From: an uncultured Candidatus Saccharibacteria bacterium
Lineage (GTDB): Bacteria > Patescibacteriota > Minisyncoccia > UBA9983
Assembly: GCA_964372755.1 (NCBI GenBank)
Contig: CAYJQX010000001.1
Location: 6,563-70,562 of the forward strand
Direction: 5' to 3'
Length of the DNA stretch: 64,000 nucleotides
The notes beneath the pieces were generated by a model. The model saw only the letters and a program-made list of their open reading frames with translations. It made no database searches and was not told the DNA's origin. Shown here one piece after another: positions 1,242 through 62,878 of the stretch. The first letter of the stretch is position 1; each line of letters begins with the position of its first letter. The translations under genes and the position numbers were made by a program.

Positions 1242-1697
1242 TCCCCAGACCCCTTTCTGCGGGTGGGAAATCAACCGAGGCAAAACGAAAAATCCTTTTT
1301 CCCAGAAAAAAGATTTTCGCTTTGCCGAGTCCGTATTGAAGCCCCACGCACCCGGCGCGTGCCACATTACCAATTTTGGAAATAGGTTCTAACTTGGTAC
1401 AATAAATACACAATATAATCGAGTCAGGCGGGCGGGTAAGCCGTTAATGTAGGTTCGATTCCAACGTGGTGCAGAATACTTGAATTAGTCCGAACGCATT
1501 TTTCCGAAAAAATCCCCCCGAAAAAATTCGGAAAGGCGGCCGAGTCGCACCGCTCAAAACCGCAAAAGAACCCGGAGAAAAACATCGGCTCGAACCATGT
1601 TTTAGAAAATCGCCAATTCGTTTTTGCCCCGAAAATTCAATACCAACTGGCCGCCGAGCGAAGCGAGGCGGCTTCCTCTGGCTTGCTATTTCCGAAA

Positions 1698-3680: not shown

Positions 3681-3733
3681 TCTTTTTTACTATAATCCTC
3701 AGGATTTGTTATTTTAAATAATTAATTAAAATT

Positions 3734-3816
3734 GCGCGGGTGCTGTAACGGTAGCCAGGCTGGCTTGAGGTGCCAGTGTCCGCAAGGACGTGGAGGTTCA
3801 AGTCCTCTCCCGCGCA
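3734..3816 (+). tRNA. tRNA-Leu (anticodon GAG), type II with long variable arm
   Basis: GCGCGGG TG CTG TAACGGTAGC CAG G CTGGC TTGAGGT GCCAG TGTCCGCAAGGACGT GGAGG TTCAAGT CCTCT CCCGCGC A. It has a 3-bp D stem, anticodon loop TTGAGGT and a variable-arm hairpin GTCC/GGAC. CCA is not encoded. Confidence 0.85.
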
Positions 3817-3967
3817 TAGTGAGCGAAGCGAACAAAGCGCGGAGCGAGCCAACTGCTTGGCTCGCGAGAGAGGGCTTGAATGCCGGAGTCATATCAAGTC
3901 AGCAGACGAGATGGCGAGGCGGGGGCGAGAAAATTTGTGAGTGACTGACGAACAAATTATTCGTGCC

Positions 3968-3995
3968 CAAGTCCTGATGTCTCTCCCGCGCACCA
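3968..3995 (+). repeat. direct degenerate copy of the tRNA-Leu 3' end (CAAGTCCT..TCTCCCGCGCA + CCA)
   Basis: CAAGTCCTgatgtCTCTCCCGCGCACCA matches the tRNA-Leu 3' region CAAGTCCTCTCCCGCGCA apart from a 5-nt insertion. The intervening 3817-3967 is GC-rich with the hairpin GAGCGAGCC aactgctt GGCTCGCGAG. Confidence 0.5.
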
Positions 3996-57717: not shown

Positions 57718-58164
57718 ATGCCAGTTTTAGCCGAAAATCGTAAAGCCAGATTTGATTATGAAATCATTGAAGTTTTTGAATCGGGCTTAAAACTTACAGG
57801 TAGCGAAGTGAAAGCTGTTCGGGATGGAAAGGCCTCTATTGCGGGCGCTCATGTCATTATTCGCGGCGGGGAAGCTTATATTGTGGGGGTATCCATACAG
57901 CCATACCAGCCTTCAAATAAGTCTTCTTTGGTGGAAAAAGAAAGAACCATCACTCTTCTTCTAAACAAAAAGGAAATAGAATATCTTTTTGGGAAAACGG
58001 AAAAAACTGGTTTGACAATTGTGCCTATACGTGTTTATACTAAAGGGCCGAGAATAAAGCTGGAAATAGCTCTTTCTCGAGGCAAGAAAAAGAGCGATAA
58101 GAGGGAAACCATAAAAAAAAGAGACGATGAAAGGATTTCCGCTCGCGCTCTAGTACGGGAGTGA
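57718..58164 (+). CDS. smpB: SsrA-binding protein SmpB
   Basis: ENRKARFDYEIIEVFESGLKLTGSEVKAVRDGKASIAGAHV matches the SmpB signature. TGGTATAAT lies 6 nt before the ATG. Confidence 0.9.
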   Translation: MPVLAENRKARFDYEIIEVFESGLKLTGSEVKAVRDGKASIAGAHVIIRGGEAYIVGVSIQPYQPSNKSSLVEKERTITLLLNKKEIEYLFGKTEKTGLTIVPIRVYTKGPRIKLEIALSRGKKKSDKRETIKKRDDERISARALVRE

Positions 58165-58228
58165 CAATTGGTATCGACAAGAAATGTACTTTTATATGCG
58201 CATCGAGCAACATCTCAAATCTCGTAAA

Positions 58229-58516
58229 TCTGGGGGATAAAAACTCAAATGTAGCATCACCTTTTGCTACTCCGGCTCCCGCATACGCGTAAAGTCGGCG
58301 TTTCTTTCCGCAATTCTTGGTAGCGGAGAGAGGCGTTAATTGCCAAGATCGAAATATCACTTTGATTGATAGATGATGTTTCTAAACAAAAATCAATCAC
58401 GGCTTTAAAGATTTGGCCCACTTTCTACTTTAAGGTTTAAAAAATAAAGTGAAGCTACATGCGTAGAAATATTCAAGGAACCTTCTTGCACGTGGGTTCG
58501 AACCCCACCACTTCCA
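58229..58516 (+). ncRNA. ssrA: candidate tmRNA (ssrA) region; ends not resolved
   Basis: Immediately downstream of smpB. A tRNA-like T arm GTGGG TTCGAAC CCCAC (58492-58508) is followed by a 7-nt acceptor-like strand CACTTCC plus A (58509-58516). Upstream candidate 5' end GGGGGAT (58229), hairpin GTAGCA..TGCTAC and a short Ala-rich frame GCT ACT CCG GCT CCC GCA TAC GCG TAA (ATPAPAYA*). The intrinsic terminator at 58580-58607 closes the region. No clean 5' acceptor partner could be found by eye. Confidence 0.35.
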
Positions 58517-58579
58517 CTCGACTCGTTTTGCTTTGGAAAGCAAAACTCGCTCGTGGTAAACCACGTGAGCGATAAAAAT

Positions 58580-58699: not shown

Positions 58700-58966
58700 A
58701 TGTATTTTGTTTATATGATTATGAATTCTAGTAGAGATCTTTATGTCGGAGTTACTAAAAATCCAAATGAAAGAGTAAATTTTCATAACAAAAAACAAGG
58801 AGCGAATTTTACTAAAAATAGACTAGAATTCAAGATAGTTTTTCTTGAAGAGTATAAAAGTTTTAAAGAAGCAAGGCAAAGAGAAATCCAAATTAAAAAA
58901 TGGCGAAGAGACAAGAAAGAACGTTTAATAAGTCTTTACAAACAAGGATTAAACACAAAGAAATAA
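58700..58966 (+). CDS. small GIY-YIG nuclease-superfamily protein (YhbQ/UPF0213-like)
   Basis: MYFVYMIMNSSRDLYVGVTKNPNERVNFHN matches the GIY-x10-YIG...R...H...N pattern. TATAAT lies 6 nt before the ATG. Confidence 0.6.
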   Translation: MYFVYMIMNSSRDLYVGVTKNPNERVNFHNKKQGANFTKNRLEFKIVFLEEYKSFKEARQREIQIKKWRRDKKERLISLYKQGLNTKK

Positions 58967-61791: not shown

Positions 61792-62457
61792 ATGGCAAGA
61801 AAAGAAGATAAAATAAAAGCAATAAGTCTCCGGCTTAAAGGCCAAAGTTACAGCCAAATAAAATCTAAAATTAAAATAAGTAAAAGCACCTTGAGCAATT
61901 GGCTTCAAGATTATCCGCTTTCAGAAAAGAGAATAAGAGAACTTCGCGATTTAAATCCCCAAAGAATAGAGAGGTATAGGGCAACTAGAGCTTTGCAGAA
62001 AAAAACTCGCTTGGATGAGATTTATGCAAAAGAGAAGAAAGCGCTTCTGCCTTTTTCAAAACGAGACCTTTTTATCGCAGGTCTTTTCCTGTATTGGGGA
62101 GAGGGAGGGAAAACCGCCAATGCACAGTTGACTTTAACAAATACAAAACCAAGTATTATCAAGTTTTTTATTTTTTGGGCGGACAAAGTTTTAAAAATAA
62201 ATAAAAAAGATATTGTATTTCGTCTGCATATTTTTAAGGATATGAGTCCCGAGAAAGAGATATTTGCTTGGTCTAAAGAGTTAAAAGTTTCTAAAAATCA
62301 GTTTAGGAAATGTTTTGTAAAGAAAACTTTAAGTTCTAGCGTGACATACAAAAGAAGCTTTAGGCATGGGACATGTGACGCGATAATCAGGGGTGCTCGA
62401 TTAGCAGAAAAAGTTTTAATGTCACTTAAAGCGATTGAAGATAGTTTCCGAAATTGA
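61792..62457 (+). CDS. HTH + LAGLIDADG-like endonuclease family protein (paralog of 1866-2540)
   Basis: HTH QSYSQIKSKIKISKSTLSNWLQD. LAGLIDADG-like block FIAGLFLYWGEGGKTAN. The stop lies 18 nt before the tRNA at 62476. Confidence 0.5.
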   Translation: MARKEDKIKAISLRLKGQSYSQIKSKIKISKSTLSNWLQDYPLSEKRIRELRDLNPQRIERYRATRALQKKTRLDEIYAKEKKALLPFSKRDLFIAGLFLYWGEGGKTANAQLTLTNTKPSIIKFFIFWADKVLKINKKDIVFRLHIFKDMSPEKEIFAWSKELKVSKNQFRKCFVKKTLSSSVTYKRSFRHGTCDAIIRGARLAEKVLMSLKAIEDSFRN

Positions 62458-62475: not shown

Positions 62476-62547
62476 GCGTCCGTAGCTCAATGGTAGAGCA
62501 GTCGTCTTATACACGACTGGCTGGGGGTTCGAGTCCCTCCGGACGCA
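62476..62547 (+). tRNA. tRNA with anticodon TAT (UAU; would decode AUA = Ile); CCA not encoded
   Basis: GCGTCCG TA GCTC AATGGTA GAGC A GTCGT CTTATAC ACGAC TGGCT GGGGG TTCGAGT CCCTC CGGACGC A. The cloverleaf is regular. Anticodon stem GTCGT/ACGAC is perfect and the loop CTTATAC puts TAT at positions 34-36. Confidence 0.65.
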
Positions 62548-62563
62548 TAGCAAGTCTTCAGGC

Positions 62564-62585
62564 ATGCGTCTGGAGGGACTCGAAC
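62564..62585 (+). repeat. inverted copy of the tRNA 3' end, forming a 22-bp hairpin with the tRNA T-arm/acceptor 3' strand
   Basis: ATGCGTCTGGAGGGACTCGAAC is the reverse complement of the tRNA 3' end GTTCGAGTCCCTCCGGACGCAT (62528-62549). One G-U position. A 14-nt spacer separates them. Confidence 0.6.
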
Positions 62586-62716
62586 AGGAAAGGGGTCGGG
62601 CGATTTTTAAGCGTAAAAATCGGTTCAAAATCTGCTAATTTTAAACTTCCTTATTCTTCTATTTTTCCCGTGGAGGAAAAATACGAAACCGTGGGTTTAG
62701 TAGGAGCGAAGCGACG

Positions 62717-62739
62717 TTTGATTCCCTCCGGACTCATAT
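62717..62739 (+). repeat. direct degenerate copy of the tRNA(UAU) 3' end
   Basis: GTTTGATTCCCTCCGGACTCATA versus tRNA GTTCGAGTCCCTCCGGACGCATA gives 20 of 23 identical, about 170 nt downstream of the tRNA. Confidence 0.5.
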
Positions 62740-62805
62740 AATATTCTCTCCCTGCCCTTGACTTCACAACACCAGATATGATAGAAATTTTACTGGAAAT
62801 ACCAA

Positions 62806-62878
62806 AGCGGGTTCGTTCAAACGGTCCAGGACGCCTTTCTCCCCGGAAGGAAATAGGGTTCAAATCCCTACCCGCTTT
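62806..62878 (+). other. tRNA-like element / possible pseudo-tRNA (T arm and acceptor fold; D arm does not)
   Basis: AGCGGGT ... TAGGG TTCAAAT CCCTA CCCGCTT T. The acceptor (7 bp) and T arm are good. A candidate anticodon arm CCTTT CTCCCCG GAAGG exists, but no D arm could be folded. Followed by the terminator at 62881-62920. Confidence 0.3.

Follow-up and report, generated by a model that had tools for sequence, protein, structure and literature searches.

A family of tRNA-linked structured RNAs in Patescibacteria, probably copies of a protein-less insertion element

Why should an intact tRNA gene be followed, within 180 nt, by a second copy of its own 3' end? The question is raised by the tRNA-Leu(GAG) gene in the stretch of Patescibacteria DNA analyzed in this study (64,000 nucleotides in all, hereafter the window). 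The gene (3734-3816, + strand; 3733-3817 by ARAGORN; Rfam tRNA score of 46.2 bits) is intact, includes the first and functional copy of the 3' segment, and has no encoded CCA; TAG lies directly 3' of it. Its last 12 nt, CTCTCCCGCGCA (3805-3816), recur at 3981-3992, and the 8-mer CAAGTCCT is present both at 3799-3806 and at 3968-3975. The second copy (3969-3995, + strand) starts at tRNA position 57 and consists of AAGTCCT, a 5-nt insertion (GATGT) that splits its two blocks, CTCTCCCGCGCA and a CCA (3993-3995) that follows this copy only. An earlier note on this DNA had described the duplication, and the 12-mer and 8-mer repeats bear it out. A chance repeat is ruled out by the exact 12-mer within 180 nt and by the recurrence of the pattern in dozens of loci. 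The note had also called the ORF at 3732-3944 spurious, and we agree, since it overlaps tRNA-Leu and structured RNA and is without support as a gene.

The neighbors of the insert are rplS and a PGA_cap gene. The order tRNA-Val(TAC), rluD, rplS, tRNA-Leu(GAG), tRNA-His is common to the window and about 36 relatives, and the L19 protein of the window is 63-79% identical to those of the best genome relatives, which are Patescibacteria metagenome-assembled genomes of the Parcubacteria/Paceibacterota-like kind to which the window is itself assigned. A RluD protein identical to that of the window was found on just one other contig, which is 1.7 kb long and ends at the tRNA. Most tRNA genes in the compared loci (L001-L038 and L082-L201) are without an encoded CCA and end in the form discriminator-C-A (...GCAC A...); a minority carry the full CCA.

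Directly 3' of tRNA-Leu is a predicted mini-hairpin (3819-3833, + strand, as are all features of the insert) that holds GAGCGAAGCGA (3821-3831). The 64 kb contain exactly three copies of this motif, one next to each of tRNA-Val, tRNA-Leu and tRNA-Ile. The mini-hairpin is followed by an antisense copy of the tRNA end, here called the guide, which had gone unremarked in the earlier note, as had the start of the repeat at T-loop position 56/57. Guide part 1 (3837-3842) reads GCGCGG, the antisense of the acceptor 3' strand sequence CCGCGC, and pairs with 3986-3991 in the minimum-free-energy fold. Guide part 2 (3866-3880), GAGAGAGGGCTTGAA, is complementary to the T loop and the 3' strand of the T stem (about positions 54-65). 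The two parts are split by a predicted 9-bp hairpin with a CUGC loop (3844-3865), which is the strong hairpin already pointed out in the spacer, GCGAGCCAA-CUGC-UUGGCUCGC; of 74 members of the family described below, 43 have CTGC in the spacer/guide region.

The remainder of the spacer forms a three-way-junction core of about 90 nt (type A, 3876-3972), delimited by a covariance model (R1), by covariation and by the predicted fold. It is composed of helix P2 (3882-3884 with 3918-3920), an internal loop of GGA (3885-3887) and GA (3916-3917), the hairpin hp2 (3888-3915) and the long hairpin P3 (3921-3968), whose 3' end is GCCC where the family consensus is GACC. P3 runs straight into the second tRNA-Leu copy, and the first 8 nt or so of that copy are predicted to pair with guide part 2 as helix P1, closing the junction. 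The whole insert folds as described with -74 kcal/mol (z = -4.6 versus shuffles), and the core of the window, itself among the 117 training sequences of R1, scores 88 bits against that model (E about 1e-21). No credible ORF lies within the 150-180-nt insert, no integrase, reverse transcriptase or transposase was found inside or beside it, and no bulge-helix-bulge motif was evident in its predicted fold.

The fold of the core is supported by comparison across the family. In a MAFFT alignment, compensatory changes were many in P2, in the closing pairs of hp2 and in both parts of P3; the pair counts in P2 were 50 GC, 39 CG, 30 AU and 8 UA. In the model-based alignment (A2), which is fitted to a model trained on 117 sequences, that of the window among them, paired cells made up 98.4% versus 78.8% in shuffled alignments, and none of 500 shuffles reached the observed value. 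Compensatory double changes were found in 18 of the 19 core pairs, and the covariation score was 0.548, versus 0.161 for shuffled alignments and 0.04-0.11 for slid partners. Some of the seemingly invariant core positions were imposed by the pattern used for retrieval; the window copy itself fails this pattern, having GGGGCG and TGCCC, a compensatory replacement of U-A by G-C. Read on the sense strand, the core pairs include 150 G-U pairs and a single A-C mismatch, versus 20 and 61 on the antisense strand, and the sense strand was the more stable in all 74 elements, by a mean of 8.4 kcal/mol. The junction strands are GAAA, NG and none. Taken together, these comparisons indicate that the core is a real functional fold and that it folds as RNA only on the sense strand. 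No clear strand bias was seen in the palindrome of tRNA end, spacer and guide, so that for this part a DNA-level feature or origin of the guide, or a bidirectional terminator, is possible.

The earlier note had proposed a search for other copies of the spacer, and a pattern derived from the type A core finds at least 120 metagenome loci. Among the matches listed, 75 (73 distinct cores) lie within 130 nt downstream of a tRNA on the same strand, and their host tRNAs represent 30 anticodon types. Most other matches are at contig ends, in tandem arrays behind another type of element, or after tmRNA. In the tmRNA-linked elements (L142, L127, L082 and L143), guide and second copy alike correspond to the T arm and the acceptor end of tmRNA. 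Model R1 yields further copies, with four to six on each of several contigs of about 10 kb, and has no match in the five non-Patescibacteria loci searched. In unbiased loci, about 10-15% of tRNAs carry an element. Around rplS in the relatives, the last 14 nt of many tRNAs (Arg, Leu, Val and His) recur at a distance of 125-260 nt downstream, and several of these tRNAs also have an antisense copy. The elements are always on the tRNA strand and often lie between two tRNAs of a cluster; the inserts measure 130-250 nt and their cores 60-100 nt. Tandem arrays are found in L098 (three copies), L090, L011, L036 and L165.

At least three kinds of core lie between guide and repeat: type A as at tRNA-Leu, type B, which is described below for tRNA-Ile and is present also in L023, L026 and L198, always behind a tRNA, and type C, defined from six sequences read by eye. 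The elements also fall into two classes by their arms. The tRNA-Leu element of the window is of the long class, whose guides are complementary to positions 54 to about 75 and whose GACC leads into a copy of the tRNA that starts at position 57. Guides of the short class comprise only about positions 70-75 plus the trailer; they run on into a long, A/T-rich, CUGC-looped hairpin, and the spacer here resembles an intrinsic terminator continuous with the tRNA end. Just A-C/T-A follows GACC in this class, repeating positions 73-75 of the local tRNA: ACA where the gene has ...CACA, and ATA or ATG where it has ...CATA. The junction is 3 nt from the 3' end of the guide in both classes, and L151 combines a short guide with a long repeat. 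A search of the spacer region against Rfam had also been proposed; it was run, and neither at the gathering threshold nor at permissive E-values did any Rfam 15 family match the elements. Full-text literature searches returned no description of such elements; the one relevant paper found deals with group I introns in the anticodon loop of Patescibacteria tRNAs (PMC13011429). The family is large, and it is absent from Rfam 15 and from the literature searched.

The pattern had further been reported to recur in the window at tRNA-Ile(UAU) and, weakly, at tRNA-Val. The first of these recurrences was confirmed: tRNA-Ile(UAU) (62476-62547, + strand) has both an antisense and a direct copy of its end downstream. 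Its element (62548-62736, + strand), which is without an Rfam match, comprises a guide at 62565-62585, antisense over 21 nt with one mismatch that gives a G-U pair, a type B core that contains GGGGTCGGG...GTGGAGGAA...AACCGTGGGTTT, a GAGCGAAGCGA hairpin at 62704-62714 and a degenerate direct second copy at 62720-62736. Thus it has a second type of core and follows the same logic as the tRNA-Leu element. The claim for tRNA-Val was not borne out: no copy of the Val 3' end lies downstream, and the region shares just the GAGCGAAGCGA hairpin, in opposite orientation. An orphan 3' piece of tRNA-Arg(TCT) accounts for the apparent recurrence; it lies at about 1436-1473 (+ strand), convergent to tRNA-Val, extends from the anticodon loop to the 3' end and has a degenerate T stem. 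No 5' half of it was found within the window, and in relatives an intact tRNA-Arg(TCT) adjoins tRNA-Val.

Several other features were observed near the RNA genes of the window. ARAGORN reports a tRNA-Gly(CCC) at 62805-62878 (+ strand) with the anticodon at position 37 and hence an enlarged anticodon loop; this candidate is unreported by Rfam at the gathering threshold, is without an encoded CCA, and may be an unusual or defective tRNA. Two paralogous ORFs with 29% identity (1866-2540 and 61792-62454, both + strand) each adjoin a tRNA gene and combine an N-terminal HTH with a LAGLIDADG-like motif (LYLGEGAK and LYWGEGGK, respectively). Homologues occupy the same place beside tRNA-Val in L028, L022, L016, L020 and L012, and lie directly upstream of element-bearing tRNAs in L121 and L089. 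Searches against Pfam, NCBIfam and PDB sequences gave weak HTH matches only and no structural homologue, and these ORFs were dropped as a partner of the elements since no clear link to the elements was seen. A tmRNA gene is present at 58157-58519, with no element of the family downstream. Just 3' of it, a small ORF (about 58700-58860, + strand) that starts MYFVYMIMNSSRDLYVGVTKNPNERVNFHN resembles by eye the N-terminus of a GIY-YIG-type nuclease.

The guide matches the local tRNA in each element, and similar cores adjoin different tRNAs. In the register common to the family, the last 3 nt of the guide pair with positions 54-56 and the remainder with position 57 onward; 5.75 of 9 positions are paired in this register, versus 4.19 in shuffles (sd 0.14). 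Direct repeats are present in at least 30 family members. Their 5' boundary is fixed (56/57 or 72/73), their 3' boundary varies from position 73 to about +18, and their length ranges from about 3 to about 65 nt. In the nine loci in which the two copies differ, and in the window, the first copy pairs at 7 of 7 positions with the acceptor 5' strand and the second at 2-6 of 7. Across the family, mismatches in the second copy amount to 0-7% at positions 57-64 and 13-33% at positions 65-72, and the conserved part is exactly where the ungapped guide pairs. This pattern suggests that the 8 or so proximal nt of the second copy belong to the RNA fold, as P1, and that the rest is a decaying relic. The tRNA upstream of the elements is intact, and none arises only by joining position 56 to the second copy. 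An obligate T-loop intron with the second copy as its 3' exon was rejected for this reason: the first copy is always compatible with the acceptor, and splicing would add no tRNA.

Several observations bear on whether the elements move. The nearest neighbor of a core shares its tRNA type in 4 of 73 cases, versus 2.9 expected, and cores with pairwise similarities of 0.82-0.84 are found at Ile and Lys, Arg and Leu, and Ile and Ser tRNAs. Homology of related cores runs from the spacer hairpin or P2 to exactly GACC, and the flanking arms are target-specific. The comparison of the locus among relatives that the earlier note had called for showed the element to be polymorphic. The orthologous rplS-linked tRNA-Leu(GAG) carries a type A element in the window, L028, L036 and L017, type C in L006, both A and C in L007 and type B in L023, and is empty in about 25 relatives. 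L145 and L186 differ in element content within flanks that are 95-100% identical. We infer from these distributions present or past mobility of the element. Divergence among the cores of one genome counts against recent bursts and permits long residence with a cis function. No autonomous version with a mobility gene emerged: in cases with 0.9-1.4 kb between tRNA and element, this gap holds an ordinary gene or an IS fragment and no dedicated enzyme. In L017 (about 1530-2980), an IS-like fragment between tRNA-Leu and its guide and core separates the halves of the element by 1.45 kb; its ORF ends ...YYNYERKQWTRNKMTPVEYRNHLLAKS and resembles by eye the C-terminus of a DDE transposase.

The explanation that we favor, and consider probable from the sequence comparisons, is that the approximately 180 nt behind tRNA-Leu are an old copy of a protein-less insertion element of Patescibacteria that is targeted to the 3' ends of tRNA and tmRNA genes. 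From 5' to 3', such an element would consist of a replacement gene end, one or two small hairpins, the antisense guide and the three-way-junction core ending in GACC. In the window, the replacement copy would complete tRNA-Leu from T-loop position 57, and the host gene would remain functional without excision. The guide, by pairing with the target over 3 nt upstream and at least 8 nt downstream of the insertion point, would select the phosphodiester at which the 3' end of the core is joined, 56|57 or, in the shorter class, 72|73. The displaced original gene end would then directly follow the core, its first 8 nt or so closing the junction with the guide while the rest decays. Entry would thus take place at a single phosphodiester, and the apparent target duplication would be the sum of an element-borne copy and the displaced original. 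Single-site entry with an own gene end would give a fixed 5' boundary, a variable 3' boundary and an intact host gene.

The chemistry of such an insertion could be a strand transfer catalyzed by a ribozyme, or the work of a recombinase supplied in trans and acting on a folded single strand. Since mutation would hardly produce a guide that matches its target over up to 20 nt, a templating step is postulated; speculatively, the guide might be acquired through gene conversion between adjacent repeats or through templated correction within the hairpin. It is possible, though we put it forward tentatively, that the core of about 60-100 nt is itself a new guide-directed ribozyme that cuts or joins, or both, RNA or single-stranded DNA exactly 3 nt from the base of the guide helix. 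The elements would then form a new class of bacterial intron-like mobile RNA. They would enter tRNAs and tmRNA, and now and then an mRNA, at the T loop or the 3' end, and the spare host 3' end that they bring along would free the host from any need for excision.

By their defining features, the elements appear to fit no integrase island, group I or group II intron, MITE, IS200/IS605 derivative or known ribozyme. In size, three-way junction and conserved unpaired purines they are reminiscent of small self-cleaving ribozymes and retrozymes (hammerhead, twister, hatchet and HDV-like), and they share with self-cleaving ribozyme repeats the tandem arrays and the linkage to other RNA genes. However, no Rfam 15 ribozyme family matched in E-value mode, and the hammerhead and HDV core motifs (e.g. 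CUGANGA/GAAA) are absent. A likeness to hammerhead, HDV and hairpin ribozymes was dropped after comparison by eye with the junction strands. A MITE of a DDE transposon was likewise rejected, as the inverted segments are target-specific, the repeat length is variable, and there are no constant terminal inverted repeats or fixed duplication.

Among the alternatives to an insertion element, the one that survives best, although we think it unlikely, is a resident and non-mobile cis module of the tRNA transcript, with a role in termination, 3' processing, stability or the punctuation of polycistrons. The second copy would then be a by-product of local duplication. Such a role would agree with the constant tRNA-strand orientation, the frequent position between clustered tRNAs, the terminator-like spacer of the short class, the divergence of cores within a genome, and a core that is clearly a functional RNA fold. 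It agrees poorly with the occupancy of about 10-15% of tRNAs in unbiased loci and with an orthologous tRNA-Leu that is mostly empty. Related cores at unrelated tRNAs, the same core at the 3' end of topA, and near-identical strains that differ in element content argue in the same direction, and a pure cis role leaves the fixed repeat boundary at 56/57 unexplained.

The topA insertions bear on the next alternative, that of a facultative and very small intron of a new kind, which we regard as improbable. On this explanation the guide would act as an internal guide, excision would join position 56 to the second copy, and the first copy would make splicing dispensable. Type A elements are present at the topA 3' end in L123 (3480-3900) and L129 (1-330). 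The last 23 or so codons are duplicated, and both copies are intact and differ mostly at synonymous sites, as continued expression of the downstream copy would lead one to expect. The L123 copies encode ...KTIPERCSNKKCANHNPHKLEK (upstream) and KTIPERCSNKSCENHNPHKIKVK (downstream), with about a dozen synonymous codon differences (TCA/AGT and CGT/AGA among them); in L129, the downstream copy is intact at the same site. Either the element took its 3' end from a distant donor, or expression of the downstream copy persists, for which excision would be needed. The topA duplicates keep the facultative intron alive as an explanation; for tRNAs, the decayed second copies oppose it. The downstream copy of tRNA hosts decays in the acceptor strand and has, in the window, acquired the 5-nt insertion as well, so that a spliced tRNA would be defective, and no host tRNA depends on splicing.

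The geometry of the guide does resemble that of group I introns. A guide beside a structured core pairs across both sides of the junction, which lies 3 bp from the base of the guide helix as in a P1/P10-like arrangement, and its upstream and downstream partners are mutually exclusive, the start of the insert and the downstream copy pairing alternatively with the same guide. This is a resemblance only. Patescibacteria are rich in tRNA group I introns, which lie in the anticodon loop (PMC13011429), whereas the elements are located at T-loop position 56/57 or at 72/73. They are also without a terminal G and without a group I or group II signature, their core of 60-100 nt is far below the size of known self-splicing introns, and the host tRNA is complete with the element unexcised. 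With the Rfam Intron_gpI model, neither the window elements (E <= 10) nor 20 loci (E <= 1) gave a match.

Still less probable, in our estimation, is a non-autonomous single-stranded DNA transposon of the IS200/IS605 type, moved in trans by a Y1/HUH transposase that recognizes the hairpins, with a guide that pairs with a target on the same strand. The elements are, like the palindrome-associated elements of that group, small, non-coding, strand-specific and built of hairpins; they are strictly oriented, their guide lies beside hairpins and pairs with the flank, and, if the first copy is taken to belong to the element, a single phosphodiester would be the site of insertion. However, known members have guides of 4-5 nt, versus up to 20 nt here, and bring no target gene end along. 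The hairpins at the two ends of our elements are unlike each other, and the core covaries as an RNA three-way junction. By tblastn, a single Y1 transposase homologue was detected in about 160 Patescibacteria loci (about 1.2 Mb), in L082 and 2.4 kb from an element, and none in the window.

T-loop-type integrases leave a direct repeat of the tRNA 3' end that starts in the T loop, and the resemblance to integrase islands and prophages is close in this respect: the 3' part of a tRNA or tmRNA gene is targeted, a replacement end keeps the gene intact, and the displaced end persists as a direct repeat. The elements differ from such islands in that they are without integrase or cargo, the whole insert being 130-250 nt, in that they combine a conserved structured RNA core with an antisense guide specific to each target, and in that one family spans 30 anticodon types, whereas one integrase uses one site. 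The attL/attR scar of a deleted, larger integrase-dependent island or prophage, or else a chance repeat, is therefore the least credible reading and very improbable, since, for all that the repeat does start in the T loop, the 150 nt between the copies are a covarying RNA that is conserved at over 100 further sites, no att site is known to need a tRNA-specific antisense segment, no integrase remnant is present, and the 12-mer and its recurrence exclude chance.

These comparisons bear out the options of the earlier note in part. Its view of the repeat as a signature of insertion at a tRNA 3' end is retained, and the miniature mobile insert and the tRNA-linked structured RNA that it named separately are both supported and describe one and the same object. 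The scar of a deleted integrative element is not supported, because the spacer is itself conserved, consisting of a covarying core and a tRNA-matched antisense segment that recur at many tRNAs.

The genomes of Patescibacteria are among the smallest known. If the insertion element that we propose is correctly understood, these very small genomes would tolerate a widespread parasitic or accessory RNA of a previously undescribed kind, one that has no protein of its own, recognizes its target by base pairing and repairs the gene that it interrupts. It would also be a compact candidate for a new guide-programmable RNA activity. For annotation, spurious ORFs such as that at 3732-3944 and misplaced tRNA ends stem from these elements, and many duplicated tRNA ends and unannotated GC-rich spacers in this group would be explained by them.
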